From Arenicellales bacterium (GTDB taxonomy: Bacteria > Pseudomonadota > Gammaproteobacteria > Arenicellales > JAJDZL01): 64,000 nt of DNA. Below are positions 2,027 to 17,848 of the stretch, in pieces. Position numbers and translations under genes: made by a program. Location of the stretch: assembly GCA_965200425.1 (NCBI GenBank), contig CBDAUA010000001.1, positions 7,271 to 71,270 on the forward strand. The letters are read 5' to 3'. The notes under the pieces were generated by a model. It saw only the letters and a list, made by a program, of their open reading frames with translations, did not search any database and was not told the origin of the DNA. Position 1 is the stretch's first letter. The number at the start of each line of letters is the position of its first letter.

Positions 2027-2078
2027 TTTTCCTTCTCTGTATCATTTCATACGAATGAAGTTATCTGCTCGAACTTAA

Positions 2079-2498
2079 TCAACAGCAAGCATCTTGCTTC
2101 ACAGCAATTACTTCGATTTCCATCAACCATTCGGGTTTTGCTAGCCCCTGCACAATCACTCCAGTCGAAACCGGAAACACGCCTTTCAACCAGCTTCCTA
2201 TCACCCGATAAACTGATTCGCGATAAGCTCGATCCGTAATAAAGACTGTAATTTTGCAGATGTCACCAAGACTTGAATTTGCTTCCTCCAACAACTGCTT
2301 GACGTTGCGCATCGCTTGATCCGCCTGCGCAGCGGGATCACCTTTACCGATTACATTTCCTTCAAAATCGCTACCAACTTGCCCTCTCAAAAATATCAGG
2401 TTTCCAGCAATCACGACTTGGCACAAGTCATTGTCCAGTGACTGTTCGGTATAGGTATCTTTCGTATTGAATTTTCTGAGTCTAATATGCTCGCCCAT
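2079..2498 (-). CDS. RidA/YjgF-family enamine/imine deaminase
   Basis: 139 aa; GQVG, QAMRNVKQLLEEA, FPVSTG and LMEIEVIA motifs. Confidence 0.9.
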   Translation of the reverse strand: MGEHIRLRKFNTKDTYTEQSLDNDLCQVVIAGNLIFLRGQVGSDFEGNVIGKGDPAAQADQAMRNVKQLLEEANSSLGDICKITVFITDRAYRESVYRVIGSWLKGVFPVSTGVIVQGLAKPEWLMEIEVIAVKQDACC

Positions 2499-2516
2499 AG
2501 TCTTGCTTCGATAAAG

Positions 2517-3968
2517 TTAGGTAGTGGAAATTCTGTCACTTAGATCTGCGGCTCTTTTCACGAATTCGAGTGCATCTGTAAAATCGTAGTTCATATAGAC
2601 CGCATTTAGATGTGCAAATGGCGGTGACTGTGCAAACAACTGAAATGTCAATTTATGGTTCGCATAGTCTGAATTCAAAAGATCTCTTGCCAACGCGAGT
2701 AATTTACGCCGATCTTCGAACAACCATTCTTCGTTAATTGAATAGTATTTTTCTAACCAGGGCTTGATTTCCTCGGTTTGAAAATTCTCGTAATCTGGTG
2801 TCAGACAAATTTGCCCGCCACACAATTCTCTTGCCAAATGCATCATATGAGGAAGCTGAGTACAAGCCAGTACCCTTCCTGTATACAGTAGAGATTGATT
2901 TGGCATCAGCAGTCCTTTGGGACTACGTTGCGCAGCTGCGATAGAAGCTGTAAGATGAGCGTTGATTCCTTCTCGATAACAGACGAGTTGCGCTAGCTTT
3001 TCCCTCACTGCTTGTTGTTTATCCAAGCCGGTCTGGCGTACATTGAACAAAGCGACTCCTATCAGCATATCTGCAATTTTTTGAATGCGCTGTACAAAGG
3101 CAAACGCACTATAACGATGTAAAGTAGCACGAATGAATGTTGCTGCCCGTGTATGTTGGTAAAACAGTACGTCTTCCCAAGGTATCAAGACATCATCGAA
3201 AATCATCAATGTGTCGATTTCATCAAAGCCGTTAGCAAGAGGATAATCTACAGATGCCGCTCGGCCTCGAAATCCAGTACGGCAGATGTGGGTCAGTCCT
3301 TTCGCGTTCATGCGCACGATTACACCAAGCGCATAATCGGACAATTTTTGATCTCCCCAATTGGCGATTGTGGGCTTTACAAAGGCTTGGTCGGCATAAG
3401 CCGATGCCGTTTCATATTTCGCACCGCGAATAATCAGTCCCGCATCAGTTTCTTTGACGACATGTAATAGCATATCGGGATCTTGATCTTGGGGACGTTT
3501 CGAGCGATCTCCTTTCGGATCAGTATTCGCAGACACGTGAAACACATCGTTTTCGATTACTGAGTCAATGTGATTTTTGATGTTTTCTGCAAAGCGAGGG
3601 TCGATTTCCGACAACACATCACTGCCATCGTACAGTGACCACATCTCACCAACGGTTTCGTCCCCTACACGAGTGACAACACCACCAATGTCATCCAATA
3701 TCATGTCGACTGCATTTCGTCGGTGATGCCAATCCTCTTGCTCGAATGGCATCTTGAGAATTACCGCACTTGGATTTCCTTTCTCGTCGGTATAGGTCAG
3801 AAAATCGCGAGTCTCTTCTTCCTGTTGGAGATCAAATATTCTCGCCCGAATATTAACGATGGGTTCGAATGCCTTATGGTTTGGAACGTCATCAACACGT
3901 TTACCATCGATCCAAACTTGTCTTCCATCTTGCAGCGACTCTCGATATTCTTTTCCCGTGCGCAACAT
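2517..3968 (-). CDS. HpaB/PvcC-family FADH2-dependent monooxygenase, oxygenase component
   Basis: MLRTGKEYRESLQDGRQVWIDG start, TDPKGDRS, GLIIRGAK and FDEIDTLMIFDDVLIPWE motifs. Confidence 0.88.
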   Translation of the reverse strand: MLRTGKEYRESLQDGRQVWIDGKRVDDVPNHKAFEPIVNIRARIFDLQQEEETRDFLTYTDEKGNPSAVILKMPFEQEDWHHRRNAVDMILDDIGGVVTRVGDETVGEMWSLYDGSDVLSEIDPRFAENIKNHIDSVIENDVFHVSANTDPKGDRSKRPQDQDPDMLLHVVKETDAGLIIRGAKYETASAYADQAFVKPTIANWGDQKLSDYALGVIVRMNAKGLTHICRTGFRGRAASVDYPLANGFDEIDTLMIFDDVLIPWEDVLFYQHTRAATFIRATLHRYSAFAFVQRIQKIADMLIGVALFNVRQTGLDKQQAVREKLAQLVCYREGINAHLTASIAAAQRSPKGLLMPNQSLLYTGRVLACTQLPHMMHLARELCGGQICLTPDYENFQTEEIKPWLEKYYSINEEWLFEDRRKLLALARDLLNSDYANHKLTFQLFAQSPPFAHLNAVYMNYDFTDALEFVKRAADLSDRISTT

Positions 3969-4816
3969 GTCAATGTTCTCCTCGTTTCAGTATGCGGTCC
4001 GGCTGTACACCGCTAAAACGGTTAAGTGGTCAAAATTAAAAAATTAACTATACTACAAATTTGATTGATTACTCTTGTTTAGCAATCCACCTGAATTATG
4101 CGATAAAACCTCACGAAAGAATTTTCACATTATTGCTTAGCTTTATGTGAAGAATGACGAGTATAGTGCCTCTAATAGAGCAGTTCAATGTTTGCACGAT
4201 AGTCGATCTTTCGCACAGGAGAGTGTGAAAATATTGGGGACGCCAAAATCATGGTAAAGATGCTAGATTCATCATCGAACGAGTCGTCAAGTCTATCTAC
4301 TTTAAAGAATATTCAATTTTTGATCAGCTCTTTTGAATCCATCGTTACTGCGCGCAGTGATGTTTGGTTTTCACTCAATATCATTGATGAACGCTGAACA
4401 CAAAGGCCCGAGTAGCACAATTGTGCTAGGATGCCCCTCGTCGCTAATTCTTGAGCTTCAATATTTTAAATTGACAGTTGGATTTCGACGCTTTGACTAC
4501 CGCTCCTACAGTTGATTGCTGTTGCCTGGACATCCTATGCTCCTAGCTACATTTTATACTTAGTAGGCCGGATTCGATTTTGGTTTAATTTTGATTCATA
4601 GATGTCAATTTCTCGATGAATCAATGAGGTGCGCTAGATCATCTCTGAGTTCAGGAACTGGTTCTTTCAAAAGCTTGTTGAATTGGTGCGATAGCATTGG
4701 CACCATCAAATCATGCCAAACTCAGTGCCTCTGCAGCGCAAGCAAAAGGTAGTATGTGTTTTAGACAGTATTCAAGTTAGTCAATAACGAATACCCGGAG
4801 TTTGTGGTCGCGATGT

Positions 4817-5362
4817 TTACAATAAGTTCTCCGACAATGCATCCGAATTTTTGTCGCTATCCATAAATTCTGACTTCAATGACATTAAAACAGTTACCGC
4901 ATCAATATCAAAATAGTTCCTCAAACGAGCGGAAATCCTACTTTCCAAACCTACCTCCAATTCTTCCTCACTGGCAAGTAGCGAGTTGATCTGGTACAGT
5001 ATTTCGTCTTCATTCACACCACTGTTGGGAAAGTGCGAGTCGACTTGTACTTCCAAAATTGTTGGAATCGGATTGTTGACGATTTTCAAATGATCCGAAA
5101 CCGAAAACAAATTTACTCACTTAGTTTCGCTAATTAACTTCCGCCGCAAGTTATCTAGTAACTGTAGCAGATTATCCGAACTGTCTATCCGATTCGATTC
5201 TTTTGTCAATTCATTGCTTTCGGAGACTGCATATTAGCTGATACCGACGAGAACTTCGATGATTTTATACATAGGTTTAATATCAAGTTCTTTCATCGGA
5301 GTTGAATTCAAGTTAACTTCGAATTCTAAATCGCATACAGCATTTGGATTGATAGACTACAT
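4817..5362 (-). pseudogene. Probable degraded gene of unknown function
   Basis: The 97-aa ORF 4817-5110 extends in frame to an ATG at 5362 through three in-frame stops (TAG, TAA, TGA); it abuts the left end of the Rpn array. Confidence 0.35.
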
Positions 5363-5940
5363 AATTATAGAAACTCGTTAGTTTTCAACGGTTAAATCTA
5401 TATTTTCTACAATAGATCAAATACAGAGGCGACTTAACTGAAGCCTTATTCTCCATGCCTTTCGTTTCCGCTTTTGTTTACTCGATAAAGTCAATTTCGG
5501 GTCTTCTGTACATCGATATTTACATTTGGAACTCGATTTTAACAACGAAAAACTCATATATTGTAAAATGCTTTAGTGAGCCGATTACCTGCGCTTGTAA
5601 TTACCCGGTCAGCTCGTCGATGAGTACTGTATCGTCGTTTGGAAAGAGCCAGCTGCGATCGAACTTACCACTAGCCTAACAAGGGCTGTCGTATCAGAAG
5701 TCTGTTCTATCGTCTGCACATTTCAGGCTAAATTCTGCTTTGTGTTGCGAAGCACTTGTTTGCATACCAAGCAGCTTCAATGCAAGTTGAATTCAACTTC
5801 CTGTTCTTTACGAAATGACGAGCGCGTCTTTCAAGCAACAGTCAGTACTGTTGTTCGAAATCCGGCTTCATGTTGAGTCGTCGACGCAGTGCGTCGTGGC
5901 TAGCTTCAGTTTCTTCGACCTCACACTTTCAGGAGGCCCT

Positions 5941-7032
5941 TTGCCAACACCTAGAATTCCTTACGATTCTTTCTATAAACGTATCTTCTCCCACCCGCTA
6001 ATGGTCTACGAACTGATTCAACTTCTATCAGCGAATCAGCTGGAGTTGGACACTTTACAATTATTCGCCACCGAACATGTCTCTAGGGATCTACAAAAGC
6101 GCTACCAAGATCTGGTCTACCAGGCAACAAGCATGACAAACGGTAGGGCGGTGTACTTAGCCTTCGAGTTTCAGTCAACGGTGGACAAACATATGCCGTT
6201 ACGGATGAACAGCTACTGTTCACTGTTGTTGGAGCAATTGGTTCGGACACAGCCGATGGGACTGGATAGTGCTTACCCAAGGATCTATCCAATCGTTATC
6301 TATAATGGAAAAAGTCGGTGGACTGCTCCACTACAGTTGAGTGAATGGTTCGGTCGACGAAGTTCGTTGCTGAGTAATTATCGGGGACGGTGTCGAATCA
6401 ATTTAGTGGATTTATCGACGTACAAGGAATGGGCATTGCAATGTGAAGGCAGTCCACTGGCGTTGTTGATTCGATTGGAAGGAGTCGAATCAGTGGAGGA
6501 GTTGGCTGAAGTTGCAGAAGAATTTACCGAGTGGTATCAGAGCAGCGGTGTAGATACACTAAAAGCAGATTTGACGGGTTTGTTAAAGGCAAATGCAGAA
6601 TTAGTAGGCGGTATCGAATTACGAAACAGGTTAGCAGGAGTACAAGACATGGGAAGGTTAGCGGAGACGATGAAAGAATGGATTGCTGAGAAAGAAGCAG
6701 CTGGGATTGCTCTAGGACTGAAACAGGGATTGGAGCAAGGACGGGAACAGGGTCTGGAACAAGGATTGGTTCAAGGACGAGAACAAGGATTGGCTCAAGG
6801 ACGAGAACAAGCGGCTTTAGAGTACGTTAAAGGCAAACGTGATGTGTTATTGCGACAAGTGGAGTCAAAGTATGGACTACAGGTACGTGAAGAATTGACC
6901 GAGACCTTACAGCGGTGCACAAAGTCAGAAGCGCTGGATCGGTTCGCAGATTGGATCTTTGAGTGCGATACTGTTGACGAACTGTACCAACGCATGCGCT
7001 CAAGTAGCAATGGTATGAATTGGCTCGATTAG
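5941..7032 (+). CDS. Rpn/YhgA-like PD-(D/E)XK nuclease (Transposase_31 family), copy 1
   Basis: YDSFYKRIFS, RYQDLVY, FEFQSTVDKHMPLRM and PIVIYNG motifs, GLEQGREQ repeats, DUF4351-like tail. Start moved to TTG 5941, which follows AGGAGG. Confidence 0.92.
   Translation: MPTPRIPYDSFYKRIFSHPLMVYELIQLLSANQLELDTLQLFATEHVSRDLQKRYQDLVYQATSMTNGRAVYLAFEFQSTVDKHMPLRMNSYCSLLLEQLVRTQPMGLDSAYPRIYPIVIYNGKSRWTAPLQLSEWFGRRSSLLSNYRGRCRINLVDLSTYKEWALQCEGSPLALLIRLEGVESVEELAEVAEEFTEWYQSSGVDTLKADLTGLLKANAELVGGIELRNRLAGVQDMGRLAETMKEWIAEKEAAGIALGLKQGLEQGREQGLEQGLVQGREQGLAQGREQAALEYVKGKRDVLLRQVESKYGLQVREELTETLQRCTKSEALDRFADWIFECDTVDELYQRMRSSSNGMNWLD
6649..7032 (+). CDS. Putative intragenic small protein (RpnS-like) from an internal in-frame start; equivalent starts at 8853, 11575 and 13729
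   Basis: AGGAG (6636-6640) lies 8 nt before an in-frame ATG (MGRLAETMKEW...) and is conserved in all four copies. Confidence 0.65.
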   Translation: MGRLAETMKEWIAEKEAAGIALGLKQGLEQGREQGLEQGLVQGREQGLAQGREQAALEYVKGKRDVLLRQVESKYGLQVREELTETLQRCTKSEALDRFADWIFECDTVDELYQRMRSSSNGMNWLD

Positions 7033-7049
7033 ACAATATTGCCACAACT

Positions 7050-7370
7050 ATGGGAAGGCTAGCAGAGACGATCAAAGAGTGGGTTGCTGAGAAAGAAGCA
7101 GCTGGGATTGCTCAAGGACTGAAGCAAGGGTTGGAACAAGCGGCTTTAGAGTACGTTAAAGGCAAACGTGATACGTTATTGCGACAAGTGGAGTCAAAGT
7201 ATGGGTTACAGGTTCGTGAAGAATTAACTGAGACTCTACAACAGTGCACAAAGCCAGAAGCGCTAGATCGGTTCGCAGATTGGATCCTTGAGTGTGATAC
7301 TGCTGCCGAACTGTACCAACGCATGCGCTTGAATTCCAATCGTATCAATACACACATCCCAGGTAAATAA
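7050..7370 (+). CDS. Stand-alone copy of the Rpn C-terminal module
   Basis: MGRLAETIKEWVAEKEAAG...RLNSNRINTHIPGK; starts at the residue equivalent to the internal Met of the long gene. Confidence 0.75.
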   Translation: MGRLAETIKEWVAEKEAAGIAQGLKQGLEQAALEYVKGKRDTLLRQVESKYGLQVREELTETLQQCTKPEALDRFADWILECDTAAELYQRMRLNSNRINTHIPGK

Positions 7371-8144
7371 AGATAGTCTGATCAATCTTTAGTTTTGATT
7401 GTTGCTGCTTCGCCAACAAAGAATAATTGCCAAATCTTGGTCCACGCGAAGCCAAAAACAGTGTGATGGCATCACATTAGTAAAAGTCTCTAAGGGCAAT
7501 TTCTATCCGTACCGTATAAGTACTTCAATGTTAACTCACTGTAAATTAACTAGTACGAGATTAGAGAATCTTTGTCCGTTGGCTTTCAACGGTTAAATCT
7601 ATATTTTCTACAATAGATCAAATACAGAGGCGACTTAGTCTGAAACCTTATTCTCCATGCCTTTCGTTTCCTCTTTTGTTTACTCGATAAAGTAGATTTC
7701 GCGTCTTCTGTACATCGACATTTACATTTGGAACTTGATTTAAATAACGAAAATCTCATATATTGTAAAATGTTTTCGTGTAGCCGATTACTTGCGCCTA
7801 CAATTACCCGGTCAACTCGTCGATGAGTACTGTATCGTCGTTTGGAAAGAGCCAGCTGCGATCGAACTTACCACTAGCCTAGCAAGGGCTGTTGTTTCGA
7901 AAATCCGTTCTATCGTCTGCGCATTTCAGGCTAAATTCTGCTTTGTGTTGCGAAGCACTTGTTTGCATACCAAGCAGCTTCAATGCAAGTTGAATTCAAT
8001 TTCCTGTTCTTTGCGAAATGACGGGTGCGTCTTGCAAACACCAGTCTAGTACTGTTGTTCGAACTCCGGCTTCGTGTTGAGTCCTCGACGCAGTGCGTCG
8101 TGGCTAGCTTCAGTTTCTTCGACCTCACACTTTCAGGAGGCCCT

Positions 8145-9143
8145 TTGCCAACACCTAGAATTCCTTACGATTCTTTCTATAAACGTATCTTCTCCCACCC
8201 GCTAATGGTCTACGAACTGATTCAACTTCTATCAGCGAAGCAGCTGGAGTTGGACACTTTACAATTGTTCGGCACCGAGCATGTCTCTAGGGATCTACAA
8301 AAGCGTTACCAAGATCTGGTCTACCAGGCAACAAGCATGACAGACGGTAGTGCGGTGTACCTAGCCTTCGAGTTTCAGTCAACGGTGGACAAACATATGC
8401 CGTTACGGATGAACAGCTACTGTTCATTGTTGTTGGAGCAATTGGTTCGGTCACAGACTATGGGACTGGATAGTGCTTACCCAAGGATCTATCCAATCGT
8501 TATTTATAATGGAAAACGTCGGTGGACTGCTCCACTAGAGTTGAATGAATGGTTCGGTCGACGAAGTTCGTTGCTGAGTAATTACCGGGGACGGTGTCGA
8601 ATCAATTTAGTGGATTTATCGACGTACAAGGAATGGGCATTGCAAATTGAAGGCAGTCCACTGGCGTTGTTGATTCGATTGGAAGGAGTCGAATCAGTGG
8701 AGGAATTGGCTGAAGTTGCAGAAGAATTTACCGAGTGGTATCAGAGCAGCGGTGTAGATACACTAAAAACGGATTTGACGGGTCTGTTAAAGGCAAATGC
8801 AGAGTTAGTAGGCGGTATCGAATTACGAAACAGGTTAGCAGGAGTACAAGACATGGGAAGGTTAGCGGAGACGATGAAAGAATGGATTGCTGAGAAAGAA
8901 GCAGCTGGAATTGCTCAAGGACTGAAGCAAGGATTGGTTCAAGGCAAACGAGATACGTTATTGCGACAAGTGGAGTCAAAGTATGGGTTACAGGTTCGTG
9001 AAGAATTAACTGAGACTCTACAACAGTGCACAAAGCCAGAAGCGCTAGATCGGTTCGCCGATTGGATCCTTGAGTGCGATACTGCTGCCGATCTGTACCA
9101 ACGCATGCGCTCAAGTAGCAATGGTATGAATTGGCTCGATTAG
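8145..9143 (+). CDS. Rpn/YhgA-like nuclease, copy 2
   Basis: Near-identical to copy 1; AGGAGG + TTG start; shortest QG-repeat tract. Confidence 0.92.
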   Translation: MPTPRIPYDSFYKRIFSHPLMVYELIQLLSAKQLELDTLQLFGTEHVSRDLQKRYQDLVYQATSMTDGSAVYLAFEFQSTVDKHMPLRMNSYCSLLLEQLVRSQTMGLDSAYPRIYPIVIYNGKRRWTAPLELNEWFGRRSSLLSNYRGRCRINLVDLSTYKEWALQIEGSPLALLIRLEGVESVEELAEVAEEFTEWYQSSGVDTLKTDLTGLLKANAELVGGIELRNRLAGVQDMGRLAETMKEWIAEKEAAGIAQGLKQGLVQGKRDTLLRQVESKYGLQVREELTETLQQCTKPEALDRFADWILECDTAADLYQRMRSSSNGMNWLD

Positions 9144-9160
9144 ACAATATTCCCACAACT

Positions 9161-9451
9161 ATGGGTAAGCTAGCGGAGACGATGAAAGAATGGATTGCTG
9201 AGAAAGAAGCAGCTGGAATTGCTCAAGGACTGAAGCAAGGATTGGTTCAAGGCAAACGAGATACGTTATTGCGACAAGTGGAGTCAAAGTATGGGTTACA
9301 GGTTCGTGAAGAATTAACTGAGACTCTACAACAGTGCACAAAGCCAGAAGCGCTAGATCGGTTCGCCGATTGGATCCTTGAGTGTGATACTGCTGCCGAT
9401 CTGTACCAACGCATGCGCTCAAGTAGCAATGGTATGAATTGGCTCGATTAG
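9161..9451 (+). CDS. Stand-alone Rpn C-terminal module (308-bp repeat unit)
   Basis: MGKLAETMKEW...SSSNGMNWLD. Confidence 0.75.
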   Translation: MGKLAETMKEWIAEKEAAGIAQGLKQGLVQGKRDTLLRQVESKYGLQVREELTETLQQCTKPEALDRFADWILECDTAADLYQRMRSSSNGMNWLD

Positions 9452-9468
9452 ACAATATTCCCACAACT

Positions 9469-9759
9469 ATGGGTAAGCTAGCGGAGACGATGAAAGAATG
9501 GATTGCTGAGAAAGAAGCAGCTGGAATTGCTCAAGGACTGAAGCAAGGATTGGTTCAAGGCAAACGAGATACGTTATTGCGACAAGTGGAGTCAAAGTAT
9601 GGGTTACAGGTTCGTGAAGAATTAACTGAGACTCTACAACAGTGCACAAAGCCAGAAGCGCTAGATCGGTTCGCCGATTGGATCCTTGAGTGTGATACTG
9701 CTGCCGATCTGTACCAACGCATGCGCTCAAGTAGCAATGGTATGAATTGGCTCGATTAG
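9469..9759 (+). CDS. Stand-alone Rpn C-terminal module (second 308-bp repeat unit)
   Basis: Identical protein to 9161-9451, offset by exactly 308 bp. Confidence 0.75.
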   Translation: MGKLAETMKEWIAEKEAAGIAQGLKQGLVQGKRDTLLRQVESKYGLQVREELTETLQQCTKPEALDRFADWILECDTAADLYQRMRSSSNGMNWLD

Positions 9760-9776
9760 ACAATATTCCCACAACT

Positions 9777-10101
9777 ATGGGTAAGCTAGCGGAGACGATG
9801 AAAGAATGGATTGCTGAGAAAGAAGCAGCTGGGATTGCTCAAGGACTGAAGCAAGGGTTGGAACAAGCGGCAGAAGTACGTTAAAGACAAACGTGATGCG
9901 TTATTGCGACTAGTGGAGTCAAAGTATGGGCTACAAATTCGTGAAGAATTAACTGAGACTCTACAGCAGTGCACAAAGCCAGAAGCACTAGATCGGTTCC
10001 CAGATTGGATCCTTGAGTGCGATACTGCGGAAGAGCTGCACCAACGCATGCGCTTGAATTCCAATCGTATCAATACACACATCCCAGGTGAAAAAAGATA
10101 G
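9777..10101 (+). pseudogene. Frameshifted Rpn C-terminal module
   Basis: GCGGCAGAAGTAC replaces GCGGCTTTAGAGTAC (net -2 nt), giving a stop after ~35 codons; the remainder continues in another frame to 10101. Confidence 0.8.
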
Positions 10102-10866
10102 TCTAATCAATCTTTAGTTTTGATTGTTGCTGCTGCGCCAACAAAGAATAATTGCCAAATCTTGGTCCACGCGAAGCCAAAAACAGTGTGATGGAATCAC
10201 ATTGGTAAAAGTCTCTAAGGGCAATTTCTATCCGTACCGTATAAGTACTTCAATGTTAACTCACTGTAAATTAAGTACGAGATTAGAGAATCTTTGTCCG
10301 TTGGCTTTCAACGGTTAAATCTATATTTTCTACAATAGATCAAATACAGAGGCGACTTAGTCTGAAACCTTATTCTCCATGCCTTTCGTTTCCTCTTTTG
10401 TTTACTCGATAAAGTAGATTTCGCGTCTTCTGTACATCGACATTTACATTTGGAACTTGATTTAAATAACGAAAATCTCATATGTTGTAAAATGTTTTTG
10501 TGTAGCCGATTACCTGCGCCTGTAATTATCCGGTCAGCTCGTCGATGAGTACTGAATTGTCGTTTGGAAAGAGCCAGCTGCGATCGAACTTACCACTAGC
10601 CTAGCAAGGGCTGTCGTATCAAAAATTCGTTCTATCGTCTGCGCATTTCAGGCTAAATTCTGCTTTGTGTTTCGAAGCACTTGTTTGCATACCAAGCAGC
10701 TTCAATGCAAGTTTGAATTCAACTTCCTGTTCTTTACGAAATGACGAGCGCGTCTTTCAAGCAACAGTCAGTACTGTTGTTCGAAATCCGGCTTCATGTT
10801 GAGTCGTCGACGCAGTGCGTCGTGGCTAGCTTCAGTTTCTTCGACCTCACACTTTCAGGAGGCCCT

Positions 10867-11910
10867 TTGCCAACACCTAGAATTCCTTACGATTCATTCT
10901 ATAAACGTATCTTCTCCCACCCGCTAATGGTCTACGAACTGATTCAACTTCTATCAGCGAAGCAGCTGGAGTTGGACACTTTACACTTGTTCGCCACCGA
11001 ACATGTCTCTAGGGATCTACAAAAGCGTTACCAAGATCTGGTCTACCAGGCAACAAGCATGACAGATGGTAGTGCAGTGTACCTAGCCTTCGAGTTTCAG
11101 TCAACGGTGGACAAACATATGCCGTTACGGATGAACAGCTACTGTTCACTGTTGTTGGAGCAATTGGTTCGGACACAGCCGAAGGGACTGGATAGTGCTT
11201 ACCCAAGGATCTATCCAATCGTTATCTATAATGGAAAAAGTCGGTGGACTGCTCCACTACAGTTGCGTGAATGGTTCGGTCGACGAAGTTCGATGCTGAG
11301 TAATTATCGGGGACGGTGTCGAATCAATTTAGTGGATTTATCGACGTACAAGGAATGGGCATTGCAATGTGAAGGCAGTCCACTGGCGTTGTTGGTTCGA
11401 TTGGAAGGAGCCGAATCAGTGGAGGAGTTGGCTGAAGTTGCAGAAGAATTTACCGAGTGGTATCAGAGCAGCGGTGTAGATACACTAAAAACGGATTTGA
11501 CGGGTTTGTTAAAGGCAAATGCAGAATTAGTAGGCGGTATCGAATTACGAAACAGGTTAGCAGGAGTACAAGACATGGGAAGGTTAGCGGAGACGATGAA
11601 AGAATGGATTGCTGAGAAAGAAGCAGCTGGGATTGCTCAAGGACTGAAACAGGGTTTGGAGCAAGGATTGGCTCAAGGACGAGAACAAGCGGCTTTAGAG
11701 TACGTTAAAGGCAAACGAGATACGTTATTGCGACTAGTGGAGTCAAAGTATGGACTACAGGTTCGTGAAGAATTTACCGAGACTTTGCAACAGTGCACAA
11801 AGCCAGAAGCGCTAGATCGGTTCGCCGATTGGATCCTTGAGTGTGGTACTGCTACCGAACTGTACCAACGCATGCGCTCAAGTAGCAATGGTATGAATTG
11901 GCTCGATTAG
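10867..11910 (+). CDS. Rpn/YhgA-like nuclease, copy 3
   Basis: Same motifs as copy 1; AGGAGG + TTG start. Confidence 0.92.
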   Translation: MPTPRIPYDSFYKRIFSHPLMVYELIQLLSAKQLELDTLHLFATEHVSRDLQKRYQDLVYQATSMTDGSAVYLAFEFQSTVDKHMPLRMNSYCSLLLEQLVRTQPKGLDSAYPRIYPIVIYNGKSRWTAPLQLREWFGRRSSMLSNYRGRCRINLVDLSTYKEWALQCEGSPLALLVRLEGAESVEELAEVAEEFTEWYQSSGVDTLKTDLTGLLKANAELVGGIELRNRLAGVQDMGRLAETMKEWIAEKEAAGIAQGLKQGLEQGLAQGREQAALEYVKGKRDTLLRLVESKYGLQVREEFTETLQQCTKPEALDRFADWILECGTATELYQRMRSSSNGMNWLD

Positions 11911-11927
11911 ACAATATTGCCACAACT

Positions 11928-12246
11928 ATGGGAAGGCTAGCAGAGACGATCAAAGAGTGGGTTGCTGAGAAAGAAGCAGCTGGGATAACTCAAGGACTGA
12001 AGCAAGGGTTGGAACAAGCGGCAGAAGTACGTTAAAGACAAACGTGATGCGTTATTGCGACTAGTGGAGTCAAAGTATGGGCCACAAGTTCGTGAAGAAT
12101 TAACTGAGACTCTACAACAGTGCACAAAGCCAGAAGCGCTAGATCGGTTCGCAGATTGGATCCTTGAGTGTGATACTGCTGCCGAACTGTACCAACGCAT
12201 GCGCTTGAATTCCAATCGTATCAATACACACATCCCAGGTAAATAA
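11928..12246 (+). pseudogene. Frameshifted Rpn C-terminal module
   Basis: Same GCGGCAGAAGTACGTTAA lesion as the module at 9777. Confidence 0.8.
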
Positions 12247-13020
12247 AGATAGTCTGATCAATCTTTAGTTTTGATTGTTGCTGCTTCGCCAACAAAGAAT
12301 AATTGCCAAATCTTGGTCCACGCGAAGCCAAAAACAGTGTGATGGCATCACATTAGTAAAAGTCTCTAAGGGCAATTTCTATCCGTACCGTATAAGTACT
12401 TCAATGTTAACTCACTGTAAATTAACTAGTACGAGATTAGAGAATCTTTGTCCGTTGGCTTTCAACGGTTAAATCTATATTTTCTACAATAGATCAAATA
12501 CAGAGGCGACTTAGTCTGAAACCTTATTCTCCATGCCTTTCGTTTCCTCTTTTGTTTACTCGATAAAGTAGATTTCGCGTCTTCTGTACATCGACATTTA
12601 CATTTGGAACTTGATTTAAATAACGAAAATCTCATATATTGTAAAATGTTTTCGTGTAGCCGATTACTTGCGCCTACAATTACCCGGTCAACTCGTCGAT
12701 GAGTACTGTATCGTCGTTTGGAAAGAGCCAGCTGCGATCGAACTTACCACTAGCCTAGCAAGGGCTGTTGTTTCGAAAATCCGTTCTATCGTCTGCGCAT
12801 TTCAGGCTAAATTCTGCTTTGTGTTGCGAAGCACTTGTTTGCATACCAAGCAGCTTCAATGCAAGTTGAATTCAATTTCCTGTTCTTTGCGAAATGACGG
12901 GTGCGTCTTGCAAACACCAGTCTAGTACTGTTGTTCGAACTCCGGCTTCGTGTTGAGTCCTCGACGCAGTGCGTCGTGGCTAGCTTCAGTTTCTTCGACC
13001 TCACACTTTCAGGAGGCCCT

Positions 13021-14100
13021 TTGCCAACACCTAGAATTCCTTACGATTCTTTCTATAAACGTATCTTCTCCCACCCGCTAATGGTCTACGAACTGATTCA
13101 ACTTCTATCAGCGAAGCAGCTGGAGTTGGACACTTTACAATTGTTCGGCACCGAGCATGTCTCTAGGGATCTACAAAAGCGTTACCAAGATCTGGTCTAC
13201 CAGGCAACAAGCATGGCAGACGGTAGTGCGGTGTACCTAGCCTTCGAGTTTCAGTCAACGGTGGACAAACATATGCCGTTACGGATGAACAGCTACTGTT
13301 CATTGTTGTTGGAGCAATTGGTTCGGTCACAGACTATGGGACTGGATAGTGCTTACCCAAGGATCTATCCAATCGTTATTTATAATGGAAAACGTCGGTG
13401 GACTGCTCCACTACAGTTGAGTGAATGGTTCGGTCGACGAAGTTCGTTGCTGAGTAATTACCGGGGACGGTGTCGAATCAATTTAGTGGATTTATCGACG
13501 TACAAGGAATGGGCATTGCAAATTGAAGGCAGTCCACTGGCGTTGTTGATTCGATTGGAAGGAGTCGAATCAGTGGAGGAGTTGGCTGAAGTTGCAGAAG
13601 AATTTACCGAGTGGTATCAGAGCAGCGGTGTAGATACACTAAAAACGGATTTGACGGGTCTGTTAAAGGCAAATGCAGAGTTAGTAGGCGGTATCGAATT
13701 ACGAAACAGGTTAGCAGGAGTACAAGACATGGGAAGGTTAGCGGAGACGATGAAAGAATGGATTGCTGAGAAAGAAGCAGCTGGAATTGCTCAAGGACTG
13801 AAGCAAGGATTGGTTCAAGGACGAGAACAAGGATTGGTTCAAGGACGAGAACAAGGGTTGGCTCAAGGACGAGAACAAGCGGCTTTAGAGTACGTTAAAG
13901 GCAAACGAGATACGTTATTGCGACTAGTGGAGTCAAAGTATGGGTTACAGGTTCGTGAAGAATTTACCGAGACTTTACAACAGTGCACAAAGCCAGAAGC
14001 GCTAGATCGGTTCGCCGATTGGATCCTTGAGTGCGATACCGTTGGCGATCTGTACCAACGCATGCGCTCAAGTAGCAATGGTATGAATTGGCTCGATTAG
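13021..14100 (+). CDS. Rpn/YhgA-like nuclease, copy 4
   Basis: Same motifs as copy 1; AGGAGG + TTG start. Confidence 0.92.
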   Translation: MPTPRIPYDSFYKRIFSHPLMVYELIQLLSAKQLELDTLQLFGTEHVSRDLQKRYQDLVYQATSMADGSAVYLAFEFQSTVDKHMPLRMNSYCSLLLEQLVRSQTMGLDSAYPRIYPIVIYNGKRRWTAPLQLSEWFGRRSSLLSNYRGRCRINLVDLSTYKEWALQIEGSPLALLIRLEGVESVEELAEVAEEFTEWYQSSGVDTLKTDLTGLLKANAELVGGIELRNRLAGVQDMGRLAETMKEWIAEKEAAGIAQGLKQGLVQGREQGLVQGREQGLAQGREQAALEYVKGKRDTLLRLVESKYGLQVREEFTETLQQCTKPEALDRFADWILECDTVGDLYQRMRSSSNGMNWLD

Positions 14101-14117
14101 ACAATATTGCCACAACT

Positions 14118-14444
14118 ATGGGAAGGCTAGCAGAGACGATCAAAGAGTGGGTTGCTGAGAAAGAAGCAGCTGGGATTGCTCAAGGACTGAAGCAAGGGTT
14201 GGAACAAGCGGCTTTAGAGTACGTTAAAGGCAAACGTGATACGTTATTGCGACAAGTGGAGTCAAAGTATGGGTTACAGGTTCGTGAAGAATTAACTGAG
14301 ACTCTACAACAGTGCACAAAGCCAGAAGCGCTAGATCGGTTCGCCGATTGGATCCTTGAGTGCGATACTGCTGCCGAACTGCACCAACGCATGCGCTTGA
14401 ATTCCAATCGTATCAATACACACATCCCAGGTGAAAAAAGATAG
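14118..14444 (+). CDS. Stand-alone Rpn C-terminal module
   Basis: MGRLAETIKEW...HIPGEKR, intact frame. Confidence 0.75.
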   Translation: MGRLAETIKEWVAEKEAAGIAQGLKQGLEQAALEYVKGKRDTLLRQVESKYGLQVREELTETLQQCTKPEALDRFADWILECDTAAELHQRMRLNSNRINTHIPGEKR

Positions 14445-15536
14445 TCTAATCAATCTTTAGTTTTGATTGTTGCTGCTTCGCCAACAAAGAATAATTGCCA
14501 AATCTTGGTCCACCCGAAGCAAAAACAGTGTGATGGCATCACATTAGTAAAAGTCTCTAAGGGCAATTTCTATCCGTACCAAAAAAAGTACTAGAACGTT
14601 AAGACACTGTTAACTAACCAGGACGCGATTAGAGAATCTTCGTCCGTTGACTTTCATTGATTTCAATAACTTGCGCCCCTGGAAAAAAGATAGACTATGC
14701 AAATTCTAAAGTCCATACGTCTGAAATTCATCGCAAAGATTGGGTTGTGAAAAATTGACTTTTGAAGTCGGTGTTTGACAAGATGCCAACTAGAACATCA
14801 AAATAAATATCGAAAATATAGACGGCAGCCATGAACACATCTTTAGGTGTTGAATTTGATCATGATTAGTGATCTTATGAAAGAGTTTCCTCATATATTT
14901 TCAATTGAAATTGACTGTATAGTTTTATTAAAGCGAGCTTCTACGACACTAGTAAGCCAATTGCATTGAGTATCGAAAGACAGTCGGTAATGATTTCAAG
15001 AAAACGCTGCCAAATACCTCAAACTGATAATTTAATGTCTTTCAATAGCTTGGTGAAAACAAAAATCTCCTGATGTTTGTGCATTCATTTTAGAAGCCAT
15101 TACTTCGACTACAAATATTCACAGAATATTTCAATAACTTTCGGTCGACCCGCCGACACCCTTGTCGTGTCTGTTGCATTGCAATATTAGTCCTTTTCGC
15201 CCTAGCCATGCTGGAGACCTGGAGAACTCCTGATCCAGCACAAATTACCATCAGAAAAGGAACCAATTCCATGCGTTTTCGACACCCCTATTTGGTGACT
15301 TCGTAAAAAGACTCCTTTCTAGAGTTGTTTTCTCTCACTCGATGTGAACCTTTGAATTGGAAAAAGCGATTGGATTGCCAGAGTTTCAACTCTGTTGTTG
15401 CGCCAATTTCTTACCAATCAATAAATTAGTACAGCAGTTAAGGAAATATTCCGTCGAAATCATGAGGCCCAGAAAAAAAGCCACCAGCGAACCGGTGGCT
15501 AAAAATAGGAGGATAAAGCTATTAAATGAAAATCTG

Positions 15537-15854
15537 TTATGCAGCAATTCGAATATCTGCTTCCGACTGAGATTCGGTTGGATCAATTTTTTTTGTTTTT
15601 GGTTCTACCAGCAGGTTATCGTTAGCTGCTTTATTAATCTTTTCGTCTATGATTTCAGTTATTGCATATCTCGGAATACCAATGTCAGTCAACACTTCGT
15701 CACTTAGACGTTGTAGGCTTCGTATCGCTTGTCTTCGGATTACTACCCCCTGATAAGCTCGCCATACTTTGCCGACTAAAGTGCCAAGTGCTACGTATTT
15801 TTGAGCACGCGGAAATCGGCGAGGGTTTAATCTGTTGTTCTGTGTCATTTCCAT
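15537..15854 (-). CDS. DUF1127 (YjiS-like) small protein
   Basis: RRQAIRSLQRLSDEVLTDIGIPRYAI matches the DUF1127 L..LSD..L.DIG..R pattern. Confidence 0.82.
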   Translation of the reverse strand: MEMTQNNRLNPRRFPRAQKYVALGTLVGKVWRAYQGVVIRRQAIRSLQRLSDEVLTDIGIPRYAITEIIDEKINKAANDNLLVEPKTKKIDPTESQSEADIRIAA

Positions 15855-15899
15855 ATACCTTTAAGTTCGTATCCAAATCTATGTGGTTAGAAAAATTCG

Positions 15900-15986
15900 C
15901 TAACCGGTCAAATTCGCGAGAATAAGAACTACGACTACTGCACCGATGAAAGCGATCCCTACTCGATCATGAATTCTTTTCAACAT
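15900..15986 (-). CDS. Putative 28-aa single-pass membrane protein
   Basis: MLKRIHDRVGIAFIGAVVVVLILANLTG*, preceded by AGGA; lies directly upstream of the DUF1127 gene. Confidence 0.5.
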   Translation of the reverse strand: MLKRIHDRVGIAFIGAVVVVLILANLTG

Positions 15987-16441
15987 TGTTCTCGTCCTAT
16001 CGTGAGATTAAAAATGAATCGTTTACCTGAATCAGTCTTTGGTTTTTCTCTTTACATAAACCTATCAATGACTCAGTAATAATTTAATGTATTTTTAGCC
16101 AAAATCAATTGATGAATTTTCCTCTATACATGAGTATTAATTCATGGTTAACAAAATAATATATAATTTATATACTATTGTTTTTATGTTTAAATTTGTC
16201 ATAAAATAAAAGAATAATAAAATTTATTCTGCAAATAATATTCATATATTAAACGTCTATCAAGGGAGTCGTAAAAACTTGTTCTTTCAGCTCACGATGA
16301 ATTTTTAGTTTGGAACGATCACAAGTAGTATCTCCCCATCTAATTTCTTCTTTAGTACAATTCAATTCTCGTGAAAAATAAACGCCCTTTCACATTAGAT
16401 TTTCGATTAAATAAATTCAACCTGTTTACTGAGATCCATTT

Positions 16442-17848
16442 ATGGGAAAAGGAACGCTTTACAACAAAATATGGAATCAACATACTGTTTGCCAACTAAA
16501 GACAGGTCAATATCAACTGTTCATCGGTTTGCATTTGATTCATGAAGTCACTAGTCCACAAGCTTGTGACATGCTTCGGGAACGAGGACTAAAGGTTGGT
16601 TATCCAGATCGAACAATTGCGACGATCGATCACATTATTCCAACCAAAGATTCGGCGCGTCCCTACCAAGACCTGCAAGCTGAAAACATGGCTCAAGCGT
16701 TGCAGGAAAATACCACCGAGTTTAACATTCGCTACTTTAAACAAGGTGCAGCCGAGCAAGGTATCGTTCATGTCATCGGCCCAGAACTTGGAATGATTCA
16801 TCCAGGGATGACGGTTGCCTGCGGTGATTCACATACTTCAACCCATGGTGCTTTCGGTACACTTGCGTTTGGTATCGGTACCACTCAGGTGGGTGATGTA
16901 CTGGCAACACAGTGCTTGAGTATGGATCCTTTGAAAGTACGTAAAGTAGTTATTGACGGTGAGCTTGCAAATGGAGTGTTTGCCAAGGATGTCATTCTTC
17001 ATGTCATTCGAAATCTAGGCGTGAAAGGCGGAATTGGTTATGCCTATGAATACTCAGGATCGACGATAGAAGCCATGACCATGGAAGAGCGCATGACTGT
17101 CTGTAATATGTCGATTGAAGGTGGTGCTAGAGCGGGTTACGTGAACCCCGACCAAACCACCTATGATTATTTAAGGGGACGTCGGTATGCCCCAAGTTCT
17201 GATTCATGGAGTAATGCAGTTTCCCATTGGGAATCAATTCGGTCGGATGAAAACGCACAATATGACGACGTTGTCAAGTTCGATGCAGCGGATATCGCTC
17301 CGTGTGTCACTTGGGGAATCAATCCTGGTCAAAGTGTAGGCATTCATGAAAATTTACCTCATCCTAGTTCGTTGTCTAGCGGTGAATCGGAAACAGCTGA
17401 ACGTGCACTCCAACATATGAATCTAAAACCTGGTCAGTCCATGTCTGGTGTAAAAATTGATGTGGTTTTTATTGGAAGCTGTACCAACTCCCGAATTGAA
17501 GACTTGCGTGCAGCGGCAAGTGTCGTGAAAGAACAAAGAGTCGCCAATGGAGTACGAGCAATTGTTGTACCTGGCTCGAGACGAGTTGCCAGTGAGTCCG
17601 TTGATGAGGGCCTGGATCAGATTTTTATGGATGCGGGACTGGAATGGCGAGAGCCTGGTTGCTCCATGTGCCTGGCGATGAACAACGATCGACTGCACGG
17701 CGATGAAATTTGCGCTAGCACTAGCAATCGAAACTTCATTGGCCGACAAGGCAGCCCAAACGGTAGAACATTACTTATGTCACCTCCCATGGCAGCGGCA
17801 GCAGCAATTACCGGTGAAGTAACAGATATTCGTAGTCTAAGCTACTAA
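16442..17848 (+). CDS. leuC: 3-isopropylmalate dehydratase large subunit
   Basis: [42 protein letters not shown] and STSNRNF motifs. Confidence 0.97.

Follow-up and report, generated by a model that had tools for sequence, protein, structure and literature searches.

A tandem array of Rpn-family nuclease genes with free-standing C-terminal modules in an Arenicellales bacterium

Structure of the array and its long genes

The window, i.e., the whole 64,000-nt stretch of Arenicellales bacterium DNA analysed here, contains at positions 5386-14656 four tandem direct units, all head-to-tail (Table 1), with starts separated by 2204, 2722 and 2154 nt and gene bodies that are 97-100% identical across the units in 300-nt blocks. 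Each unit carries one long forward-strand ORF (5815-7032, 8025-9143, 10741-11910 and 12901-14100). The Pfam model PF04754 (Transposase_31) matches all four (E 1.6e-19 to 4e-19, 69-71 bits, cut-off 21), and the NCBIfam Rpn model TIGR01784 gives 26-27 bits, under its cut-off of 52.1. The nuclease motifs YD, QDLVY and FEFQS are all found in the long genes, and in an alignment of seven homologues the residues D9, D57, E76, Q78 and R88 are invariant, with the spacing of D11, D63, E82, Q84 and R94 of RpnA, which are the residues mutated by Kingston 2017 according to the available part of that paper. Copy 1, in which a PD-(D/E)XK nuclease domain is followed by an S module at the C-terminus, also matches E. 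coli RpnE in an hhalign profile comparison (probability 96.6%, E 6.7e-10). Repeat comparison, Pfam search and alignment agree with the initial annotation that four tandem Rpn units with intact nuclease motifs lie here.

The long genes likely start at a TTG codon (5941, 8145, 10867 and 13021) rather than at the ATG or GTG opening each ORF: AGGAGG stands 4 nt 5' of each TTG, the Pfam match begins at the TTG, the identity of the units is 84% upstream of it versus 97%, and the called start in the relative P0010 is the equivalent codon. At 5784-5799 the region upstream of copy 1 contains a perfect 16-nt palindrome, AAGTTGAATTCAACTT; the AGGAGG of this gene is at 5931-5936, and the region returned zero matches in Rfam. 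Of two conserved 61-nt blocks in the spacer between units 1 and 2, that at 7453-7513 contains the palindrome GTGATGGCATCAC and that at 7577-7637 the hairpin CGTTGGCTTTCAACG. Unit 2 contains a 308-nt tandem repeat (3.8 copies, 8863-10054).

The outer flanks are similar to C1:12347-12619 (left, 81-88% identity by blastn) and C1:21927-22251 (right, 86%), and are thereby homologous to the 3' part (left) and the 5' part (right) of a 663-nt segment that the units of this genome's three other arrays contain internally; the sequence flanking the array of the window is unique on both sides. No defence island was seen around the array, the neighbours resembling metabolic genes as judged by their translations, and the PADLOC models gave zero matches.

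Table 1. Features of the array and its flanks in the window
Feature	Position	Strand	Basis or remark
Left outer flank of element	5077..5385	+	blastn: matches 3' part of 663-nt segment
Unit 1 upstream region, probably non-coding	5386..5940	+	palindrome and AGGAGG
rpnL copy 1, 363 aa from likely start TTG 5941, ORF open from 5815	5941..7032	+	Pfam PF04754, 3.1e-19
In-gene S module of copy 1, 127 aa	6649..7032	+	internal ATG after AGGAG-N8
Free-standing S module, old type, 106 aa, tail ...NRINTHIPGK	7050..7370	+	ATG 7050, 17 nt past rpnL stop
Spacer unit 1/unit 2 and unit 2 upstream region	7371..8144	+	conserved 61-nt blocks
rpnL copy 2, 332 aa from likely TTG start, internal ATG 8853	8145..9143	+	PF04754
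Free-standing S module, 96 aa, recent duplicate of copy 2 S part	9161..9451	+	equal linker length
Second recent free-standing duplicate, 96 aa	9469..9759	+	protein sequence equal to module 9161
Third free-standing module of unit 2	9777..10101	+	broken hybrid
rpnL copy 3, 347 aa from likely TTG start, internal ATG 11575	10867..11910	+	PF04754
Old-type free-standing module of unit 3, 35 aa	11928..12246	+	2-nt deletion identical to module 9777
rpnL copy 4, 359 aa from likely TTG start, internal ATG 13729	13021..14100	+	PF04754
Old-type free-standing S module of unit 4, 108 aa, intact	14118..14444	+	ATG 14118
Right outer flank of element	14657..14981	+	blastn: matches 5' part of 663-nt segment

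Internal starts, free-standing modules and repeat variation

Inside each long gene an ATG (6649, 8853, 11575 and 13729) stands behind GCAGGAGTACAAGAC, so that the AGGAG-N8-ATG arrangement noted in the initial annotation was found in all four genes; it recurs in all 13 complete in-gene modules of the genome, and its equivalent, AAGGAGTAGAAGA(T/A)-ATG, occurs in nine of nine long genes, about 50% identical, examined in two related genomes. Four-residue repeats (GLEQ/GREQ), variable in number, make up part of the first helix of the C-terminal module. In the DNA, TRF calls imperfect 12-nt repeats at 6714-6811 in the in-gene module of copy 1, 12-nt repeats at 11637-11679 in copy 3, and 12/24-nt repeats at 13791-13879 in copy 4. 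Among the 13 in-gene modules the linker from EKEAAGI to KRD ranges from 11 residues, the length in copy 2, to 75, the lengths falling into two series, each with four-residue steps, and the 11 intact long genes of the genome have 11 different linker lengths.

Six free-standing modules (one to three per unit), four of them intact, were seen in the window, each beginning exactly 17 nt past the preceding TAG, at the Met that corresponds to the internal start, as the initial annotation had described; the homology between gene and free-standing copy starts at the ATG itself. The broken module 9777 is duplicate-like in its 5' part and of the old type in its 3' part, and its 2-nt deletion leaves 35 aa, with the frame picking up again at 9904. 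Genome-wide, all 15 free-standing modules begin 17 nt past a TAG, an ORF of at least 96 aa is present in 12, and no ribosome-binding site was found before any of them. The helix length agrees with that of the neighbouring long gene in none of the 11 measurable old-type modules of the genome; only the recent duplicates 9161 and 9469 of unit 2 have the helix length of their gene.

The 2.6-Mb genome contains 14 such long genes in four arrays, and at least one module follows each of the 13 whose 3' end lies within a contig. The layout is also found in relatives: one or two free-standing modules are present at eight of the nine loci examined in the related genomes G009 and G008, and all 11 of these modules have an open frame that begins at the conserved Met. 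Two free-standing modules also follow a 32%-identical paralogue in the genome that carries the array, and in two sub-lineages of relatives the free-standing copy has its own AGGAG. A profile search of the wider family returned 2181 cluster representatives at E ≤ 0.001; 57 of the best 150 are at most 140 aa long, and many of the short proteins share the start position, ML(A)E....

The free-standing modules appear to be under purifying selection, with a dN/dS of about 0.25 from non-independent pairs (Nei-Gojobori; 0.24 for 66 free versus free pairs and 0.28 for 78 in-gene versus in-gene pairs), although gene conversion from selected in-gene copies could be the source of the low values. Mosaic exchange between free-standing and in-gene copies was observed. 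Since three of the 15 free-standing modules and two of the 14 long genes are broken, some decay is tolerated.

The model of the free module (pLDDT 75.8) shows four helices, of which one is long (residues 4-51) and the others short, and no structural match to PDB 7TH0 was returned. In complex prediction, the tail of long gene 1 and module 7050 scored 0.63, compared with 0.30 for the best of three controls, with a contact agreement among runs of at least 94% and a partner pLDDT of at least 81; among solved complexes 58 of 80 attain this mark, and among mismatched pairs two of 110, counts that hold only roughly because own alignments were used. Module 7050 is thus predicted to pair with the C-terminal module of rpnL; the model joins helices of unequal length without penalty and therefore cannot speak to the repeat-number rule discussed below. 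Of the two Pfam families named in the initial annotation, Transposase_31 was recovered in all long ORFs, and the window's own modules reach 16.9-17.2 bits with DUF4351 (PF14261), under its gathering cut-off of 25. That model spans only about 59 residues, past the repeats; it is matched by 11 of 21 aligned modules at E ≤ 0.1 (best 1.3e-05), and several database relatives exceed the cut-off.

An Rpn long/short interpretation and its alternatives

According to the available part of Zhong et al. 2023 (PMC10400941), RpnS blocks RpnL and is made either from inside rpn or from a separate downstream gene, hypervariable four-residue repeats decide which RpnS blocks which RpnL, and a single extra repeat abolishes neutralisation in E. 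coli. We consider it probable, at about three chances in four, that the locus is an amplified toxin-antitoxin array of this RpnL/RpnS type, a type with a presumed role in phage defence. In each unit the encoded protein combines an N-terminal PD-(D/E)XK DNA endonuclease with a C-terminal helical module, and the internal ribosome-binding site and ATG would yield a short protein identical to its tail. By analogy with E. coli RpnS, the short protein may pair with this tail through the repeat helix and hold a toxic nuclease silent, and such an array could contribute to defence. The free-standing modules would correspond to downstream rpnSs-type genes, as with ypaA behind rpnE, and probably arose when a module inside a gene recombined unequally with an earlier copy downstream of it. 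Because they lack ribosome-binding sites and lie 17 nt behind a stop, they would most likely be translated by ribosomes that terminate at the upstream gene and restart. Tandem direct duplication would have produced the four arrays, and slippage of the 12-nt repeats a different helix length in every intact long gene; by the E. coli rule, the paralogues would then be insulated from each other's short proteins. The initial annotation had proposed a copy-number-tunable antitoxin. This idea is weakened by the E. coli rule together with the length mismatch between old-type modules and their neighbours; the old-type modules are probably not plain extra antitoxin. They may instead be a conserved accessory, either a weak or trans-acting binder or a recombination partner, and only the two fresh duplicates of unit 2 could serve as extra cognate antitoxin.

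Exchange among the copies is the basis of a different and unlikely reading, in which the free-standing modules are mainly a store of alternative tails, and recombination with them replaces the C-terminal module of the long gene and resets its helix length, as in silent-cassette variation, any protein product being secondary. Free-type diagnostic bases in the in-gene modules C1:16123, C1:18845 and C4:317291, reverse patches in the free modules C4:1065775 and C1:17047, the hybrid module 9777, the identical 2-nt lesion in free modules of two units with different long-gene 5' types and the lack of ribosome-binding sites here would all fit. However, a pure DNA store needs neither the frames open from the conserved ATG in 12 of 15 modules nor the low dN/dS, and near-identical neighbours are expected to exchange sequence whether or not this has a function; the copies with their own AGGAG in two sub-lineages, and E. 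coli YpaA, which is translated (PMC10400941, available part), also count against this reading. Less likely still is that a repeat family prone to recombination has left modules and arrays behind as neutral debris, without any function for themselves. The broken copies and the variation of duplication boundaries among arrays would agree with this, and the complete mismatch of helix lengths in old-type modules is what is expected without selection for pairing, but the layout is kept in homologues of about 50% and 32% identity, the modules of the relatives examined are all intact, dN/dS is far under 1, and small proteins with an equal start position are widespread.

Two further explanations concern the repetition itself. 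Pfam calls the family a putative transposase, and near-identical copies occur at four loci on two contigs, so the unit might be an insertion sequence moved by the Transposase_31 protein and the arrays repeated insertions. We regard this as very improbable, since the outer homology limits differ among the four arrays, the units are strictly head-to-tail with array-specific boundaries, and only imperfect 14-23-nt pairs, not terminal inverted repeats, were found around the unit; Zhong et al. argue likewise for rpn in general (PMC10400941, available part). Least probable of all is that reads of the 14 paralogues were wrongly assembled, giving a false array or copy number. One array does reach a contig end (C1:606801), and the contigs assembled from short reads in four public runs end within the repeats, so that they are unable to confirm the order. 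But the four units differ in many substitutions and in repeat number with frames intact, both flanks of this array are unique, and the layout is the same in related genomes of one to four contigs. Moreover, in three of the four runs contigs of 1.7 to 8.2 kb enter from outside and stop at 5412, just inside unit 1, the contig of the fourth, an RNA-library run, being 734 nt.

Comparison with known Rpn systems

The initial annotation was right in reading Rpn/YhgA-type genes whose C-terminal module opens with an internal start and is copied into separate ORFs beginning at the same Met, but not in calling the architecture undescribed. The available part of Zhong et al. (PMC10400941) already reports internal RpnS, downstream rpnSs genes annotated as DUF4351 (ypaA, or rpnESs, behind rpnE; rpnCSs behind rpnC in some strains), hypervariable repeats and rpn arrays from tandem direct duplication, and the E. 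coli K-12 rpnE-ypaA layout agrees. As all of these features recur here, the locus is a rich new example rather than a new system. Our analysis adds a genome with 14 genes in four arrays, a helix range of 11-75 residues, the length mismatch of old-type modules, selection, mosaic exchange and the layout in relatives.

The closest likeness is to E. coli rpnE-ypaA. There too, a small gene encoding only the C-terminal module lies on the same strand a few bases 3' of a long gene with an internal start, the ypaA ATG being 12 nt past the rpnE stop, compared with 17 nt here. In both cases the first Met of the small gene corresponds to the internal start of the long one (M244 of RpnE), and the copy is nearest to its own upstream gene yet has a different number of four-residue repeats (by one in YpaA). 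Unlike rpnE-ypaA and rpnC-rpnCSs, the array has up to three tandem modules per gene, and the E. coli duplication includes AAGGAGAGATTA, whereas the spacer here has no ribosome-binding site. Sequence similarity between the S modules here and E. coli YpaA is not detectable (hhalign probability 2.9%), and RpnE is inactive according to RefSeq, whereas the long genes here keep the catalytic set.

With RpnA, RpnB, RpnC and RpnP2, the long genes share a Transposase_31 PD-(D/E)XK nuclease with the D...D...ExQ...R motif set, a translation start, here read from sequence, at the head of a variable C-terminal domain whose first long helix has hypervariable four-residue repeats, and tandem arrays from direct duplication. 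In the short form the repeats begin near residue 19-27, versus 8-20 in the available part of PMC10400941, and the module is predicted as one long and three short helices, versus a three-helix bundle in PDB 7TH0. Like stand-alone DUF4351 proteins, although they stay under the gathering cut-off of that family, the modules of the window are small and helical and correspond to the tail of an Rpn-family protein.

Layout of the array and of the family in its genome

The array at 5386-14656 is composed of four head-to-tail units with start spacings of 2204, 2722 and 2154 nt, and the gene bodies of these units are 97-100% identical in each 300-nt block. Each unit holds one long gene (rpnL), whose C-terminal part is headed by an internal ATG (the in-gene module, a putative RpnS), followed by one or more separate open reading frames (ORFs) that encode this tail only (the free-standing modules). 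The initial annotation described this arrangement correctly, namely, the coordinates, the internal starts, the 17-nt gaps, and the six free-standing modules with four of them intact. When free-standing and in-gene modules are aligned, similarity starts right at the ATG. The long genes themselves most likely begin at a TTG codon with an AGGAGG 4 nt upstream, since the Pfam match begins there, the units diverge upstream of it (84% versus 97% identity), and a called relative (P0010) starts at the equivalent codon. The TTG context is the same in all 14 copies of the long gene in the genome.

Features of the array and of the related arrays on contigs C1 and C4 of the same genome (window positions unless a contig is named)
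Feature	Position	Strand	Remarks
Array 1 (window)	C1:12.3-22.3 kb
Array 2	C1:597.6-606.8 kb		reaches contig end
Array 3	C4:316.5-326.3 kb
Array 4	C4:1065.5-1070.0 kb
Long ORFs, one per unit	5815-7032, 8025-9143, 10741-11910, 12901-14100	+
Most likely TTG starts of long genes	5941, 8145, 10867, 13021
Internal ATGs of long ORFs	6649, 8853, 11575, 13729		each after GCAGGAGTACAAGAC (AGGAG-N8-ATG)
Free-standing module, unit 1	ATG 7050		106 aa
Free-standing modules, unit 2	ATG 9161, 9469		96 aa each
Broken free-standing modules	ATG 9777, 11928		35 aa each; common 2-nt deletion
Free-standing module, unit 4	ATG 14118		108 aa
Halves of 663-nt segment	5077-5349, 14657-14981		outer flanks of the array
Perfect 16-nt palindrome	5784-5799, 7987-8002 (also 5300-5314)		candidate operator
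61-nt conserved block	7453-7513, 10178-10238, 12329-12389, 14520-14580
Second conserved block	7577-7637		adjoins the 61-nt block
57-aa spacer ORF	7586-7759, 10308-10481, 12462-12635	-	probably spurious
Shorter divergent version of the 57-aa ORF	5417-5557
Metabolic-looking neighbours	632-3968	-
Metabolic-looking neighbours	16442-17848	+

Several smaller features accompany the units. A perfect 16-nt palindrome (AAGTTGAATTCAACTT), recurring in the units, lies ~140 nt upstream of the TTG and would be a candidate operator should autoregulation by the helical short protein occur. A 61-nt block that follows the last module of each unit is 97-100% identical across the four units and carries the palindrome GTGATGGCATCAC, and the conserved block next to it contains the hairpin CGTTGGCTTTCAACG; an Rfam search of positions 1-17000 at E <= 0.1, these blocks included, gave no match. 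A promoter/terminator scan of 5200-10400 returned 3 promoter-like sites where 8.3 were expected, and gave no hit at the junctions of the modules. The basic 57-aa ORF (MRFSLFKSSSKCKCRCTEDAK…) in the spacers of units 2-4 is probably spurious. As far as can be read from translations, the neighbouring ORFs are aminotransferase-like, small RidA-like, 483-aa monooxygenase-like and, downstream, LeuC-like, and the surroundings thus named look like metabolic genes and not a defence island.

The window belongs to a genome assembly of 2.64 Mb (10 contigs) with four arrays, in which there are 14 near-identical long genes (protein identity 92-100%); the arrays total ~33 kb, 1.3% of the genome. Of the 14 genes, two carry frameshifts and one is truncated at a contig end; the 11 intact ones have 11 distinct linker lengths, where the linker is the stretch of residues between EKEAAGI and KRD, taken as the measure of the helix that bears four-residue repeats. 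That helix length is unique to each intact paralogue does not hold as a general rule, as two long genes (L011 and L012) of the related genome G009 share a length.

Nuclease domain and repeat-bearing tail

All four long ORFs match the Pfam family PF04754 (Transposase_31, YhgA-like) with 69.4-70.7 bits (cut-off 21; E ~1e-19), upholding the family assignment for which the initial annotation had proposed an HMM search. In an alignment of seven homologues, consisting of two window proteins, four from two related genomes and one distant paralogue, the residues D9, D57, E76, Q78 and R88 are invariant. Their spacing, D-19-E-x-Q-10-R, is that of D63, E82, Q84 and R94 in RpnA, and D9 corresponds to RpnA D11. 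According to Kingston et al. (2017), the substitutions D11A, D63A, E82A and Q84K abolished all three RpnA phenotypes, and R94 also belongs to the set of residues whose mutation abolished or altered them. The motifs QDLVY and EFQS are kept in 13 of the 14 genome copies, the exception being frameshifted. Comparison of the long-protein alignment with E. coli K-12 RpnE by hhalign gave a probability of 96.6% (E 6.7e-10) over 153 nuclease-domain columns. The scores to NCBIfam TIGR01784 (Rpn family recombination-promoting nuclease/putative transposase) are 26.0 and 26.9 bits (E 7e-06 and 4e-06), below the cut-off of 52.1. By Pfam match and active site, then, the long proteins are members of the Rpn family, yet far from the curated TIGR01784 subfamily, given these scores under the NCBI threshold. 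PADLOC matched no model to the long protein and two modules, and phmmer and profile searches found no Rpn entry among PDB sequences.

The tail module begins with MGRLAETMKEWIAEKEAAGI, continues with four-residue repeats (GLKQ, GLEQ, GREQ, GLVQ, GLAQ), and ends with a conserved block of ~60 residues. The internal AGGAG-N8-ATG is present in all 13 complete in-gene modules of the genome, and the linkers of these modules are 11, 23, 26, 26, 35, 35, 38, 42, 43, 47, 51, 65 and 75 residues long, forming two series that each step by four residues; tandem repeats of 12/24 nt identified by TRF underlie this variation. In one long gene outside the window (C1:603599-604765), ~40 codons of the repeat tract are in another frame (…LEHWNRDFGTRIGARTGTGSGT…), after which the original frame is restored and the protein stays open at 388 aa; two compensating indels within the 12-nt repeats would explain this excursion.

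The AlphaFold model of the module at 7050 (56-row alignment, pLDDT 75.8) consists of a long helix (residues 4-51) that bears the repeats, followed by three short helices. Structure searches with the module returned generic helical matches only, with Z up to 6.5, and the RpnA-S structure (PDB 7TH0) was absent from the matches of Foldseek (two models) and VIA-align wide (first model). Likewise, the module profile did not match RpnA-S among PDB sequences, and hhalign of 56 modules against E. coli YpaA gave a probability of 2.9%, that is, no detectable similarity. RpnS domains have been called highly variable (Zhong et al. 2023, PMC10400941). The DUF4351 family (PF14261), for which an HMM search had also been proposed, is recovered in distant relatives and falls short in the window: its modules score 16.9-17.2 bits, under the gathering cut-off of 25, a match at E <= 0.1 is found in 11 of 21 aligned modules (best 1.3e-05; relatives up to 25.6 bits), and distant database homologues reach 48.8 bits, above the cut-off.

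Free-standing modules in the genome and in relatives

The genome has 15 free-standing modules, all of them 17 nt after a TAG, with an ORF of at least 96 aa in 12 cases and with 84-88% identity to in-gene modules. Most are of an older type with a distinct tail (...NRINTHIPGK or ...SRIKTHIPDEKR). The linkers of the 11 old-type modules measured are 18, 18, 27, 15, 25, 27, 19, 27, 15, 27 and 27 residues long; the value 27 recurs across three different sequences, and in none of the 11 does the linker equal that of the neighbouring long gene. Only the two recent 308-nt duplicates of unit 2 (9161 and 9469) match their own gene.

We searched 30 further genomes, 18 from the same genus and 12 from other families of the order, and found a match at E <= 1e-10 in nine, all within the genus. 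At nine loci examined in the related genomes G008 and G009, the long proteins are ~50% identical to those of the window, the internal start AAGGAGTAGAAGA(T/A)-ATG is kept in all nine long genes, and one or two free-standing modules stand behind the long gene at eight loci (11 modules, all open from the conserved Met), so the search of related genomes for Rpn genes with C-terminal-only ORFs that had been suggested from the sequence did recover the layout. The module is as long as its neighbour's tail in 0 of these 11. The duplicate of two sub-lineages starts with the ATG, as in the window, and lies 25 nt behind the stop; that of two others starts ~40 nt upstream of the ATG and includes its own copy of the AGGAG stretch, which is altered to AAAGAG in one of four such copies (L015). 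The different boundaries between sub-lineages indicate that module duplication arose several times, with varied limits and the Met always kept.

A 32%-identical Rpn paralogue in the window's genome (L020, C4:1167476-1169744) also has two free-standing modules. At this locus (C4:1166800-1170300) the repeats are GREE/GMEK, the free-standing tail modules lie 270 and 870 nt downstream, and they have no Met where the main family has its internal start. The residue at which the public gene call P0016 begins appears as V in the stop-to-stop ORF of L020, which points to a start codon other than ATG.

A profile of 21 modules, searched against 1.84 billion cluster representatives, matched 2181 of them at E <= 0.001. 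The best 150 of the 2181 comprise 57 of at most 140 aa, 53 of 141-260 aa and 40 of more than 260 aa, and Transposase_31 is carried by the long ones scanned (75 of the best 150 were scanned). By our reading of the table, about two dozen among the matches listed start no more than three residues away from where the module begins, typically with ML(A)E...EW and then four-residue repeats. Free-standing modules of this family are therefore common. A word-based protein search with the 106-aa module returned 6 proteins only, five on contigs of the same lengths as C1 and C4 of the window's genome and the sixth the window ORF itself, and a profile search of genome contigs with the long-protein alignment returned 4 loci only, two of them in G008.

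Six public metagenome proteins (P0009, P0011, P0012, P0013, P0014 and P0020), 219-395 aa long and here called 'poly-S', are made up of two to four successive tail modules, and every module has four-residue repeats of its own. P0020 is the exception in that its start precedes that of the module, and the nuclease-family and DUF4351 models yielded one match, a weak one to DUF4351 under the cut-off in P0014. We noticed no proteins of this kind in the main-text account of Zhong et al. (2023, PMC10400941).

Readings of the modules and comparison with known Rpn systems

We favour the RpnL/RpnS reading, in which the long protein would be a DNA endonuclease and the short protein from the internal start would keep it silent through pairing of the repeat-bearing helices. 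In complex prediction, the tail of long gene 1 (127 aa) and the module at 7050 (106 aa) scored 0.63 versus 0.30 for the best of three controls; this mark is attained by 58 of the 80 solved complexes and by 2 of the 110 mismatched pairs, counts that are approximate owing to the use of own alignments. Contact agreement over the runs was at least 94% and partner pLDDT at least 81. The predicted contacts, in parallel register, follow the C-terminal half of the long helices and extend to the small ones. This supports, in silico, self-association of the module and binding of the short form to the long form, and has no bearing on the effect of unequal repeat number. Because the free-standing modules have no ribosome-binding site and lie 17 nt behind a stop, they would most likely be translated by termination and re-initiation, and their yield would then depend on how much the long gene, or its in-gene short form, is translated.

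Rival readings concern the array as a whole, as a mis-assembly or a transposon, and the free-standing modules, as neutral debris or a recombination store. For the first, the short-read contigs of four public runs break within the repeats and neither confirm nor refute the order and number of units; stretches that lack coverage carry no information. About half of the sampled words of 5000-14990 are present in contigs of three metatranscriptome libraries, where presence in an RNA library does not equal transcription; several other runs also hold about half of the array words, making six studies in all, with one run labelled sponge metagenome. An insertion sequence or transposon would account for repeated units. 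However, the outer homology limits differ among the four arrays and no convincing terminal inverted repeats were found at the units, which speaks against this reading and fits tandem direct duplication plus recombination. In addition, a 663-nt segment sits within each unit of the other three arrays and occurs in the window as two halves at the outer flanks only, indicating that the duplicated unit has different boundaries in different arrays.

As to neutral debris, pooled Nei-Gojobori estimates over 76 codons outside the repeats, in the 25 modules of at least 95 aa (12 free-standing, 13 in-gene), gave dN/dS of 0.24 among free-standing modules (66 pairs), 0.28 among in-gene modules (78 pairs) and 0.25 between the two (156 pairs; dS 0.18), the pairs being non-independent and open to constraint imported by gene conversion from in-gene copies. 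These low values back a role at the protein level, without amounting to proof. Diagnostic sites reveal patches of 'free-type' bases inside in-gene modules and vice versa, and the module at 9777 is a hybrid, so free-standing and in-gene copies do exchange sequence. The initial annotation took the modules for tandem cassettes of the small protein that give a copy-number-tunable toxin/antitoxin or phage-sensing array. We doubt that the old-type modules are simple extra antitoxin, since their linker never equals that of the neighbour (0 of 11); the two fresh duplicates of unit 2, which match in length, could be extra antitoxin. A bolder reading is that the old-type modules are not spare antitoxin but a conserved, deliberately length-mismatched third component, as their helix stays near one value (5 of 11 at 27) while the long genes span 11-75. 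We regard this as unlikely, with a probability of roughly 15%. If it were true, the old-type protein could pair with the in-gene short or long proteins of any paralogue, and such pairing would fix, for all 14 nucleases together, the threshold at which they fire; the other possibility is that the old-type module acts as a recombination partner that resets helix length.

The initial annotation further proposed a new architecture. Every element of it is, however, already in print (Zhong et al. 2023, PMC10400941), and the locus is thus not a new kind of system. Zhong et al. reported that an internal translation start yields RpnS, which blocks the toxic RpnL, that RpnS also occurs as a separate gene annotated DUF4351, that ypaA behind rpnE is translated and rpnCSs stands behind rpnC in some strains, that each downstream copy derives from its own upstream gene, that rpn arrays are the product of tandem direct duplication, and that plasmid Rpn protects against some phages. 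In their account all RpnS, the downstream ones included, differ by four-residue repeats in the first long helix, and one repeat added to RpnC-S or RpnC-L abolished neutralisation unless both had it; in a commentary on that paper, repeat variation is put forward as a means of insulating multiple rpn copies. Among the 25 highest-ranked of 422 matching papers from 2023 on, we noted no further study of these modules, and the supplements of Zhong et al. may hold multi-module or mismatched rpnSs cases. What drives and limits the four-residue repeat code that pairs the short protein with its nuclease is a question left by that paper and its commentary, for which the locus offers a rich natural data set: 11 intact long genes with 11 helix lengths, 15 modules rarely matching their neighbour, and traces of exchange.

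In E. coli K-12, the ATG of ypaA lies 12 nt after the rpnE stop. The counterpart of its first Met is M244 of RpnE; YpaA shares 75% identity with the RpnE tail and exceeds it by one four-residue repeat. Like ypaA (rpnSs), the window modules are same-strand ORFs just after an rpn stop whose first Met corresponds to the internal start, and they are closest to their own upstream gene. As in the RpnS of Zhong et al. (2023), an internal AGGAG-N8-ATG, here a sequence feature, heads the C-terminal domain, and hypervariable four-residue repeats in the first long helix are common to the long and short forms. The locus is an unusually rich example of the known RpnL/RpnS kind rather than a new system, and with it the known range of the rpnL-rpnSs layout reaches a group distant from the enterobacteria.
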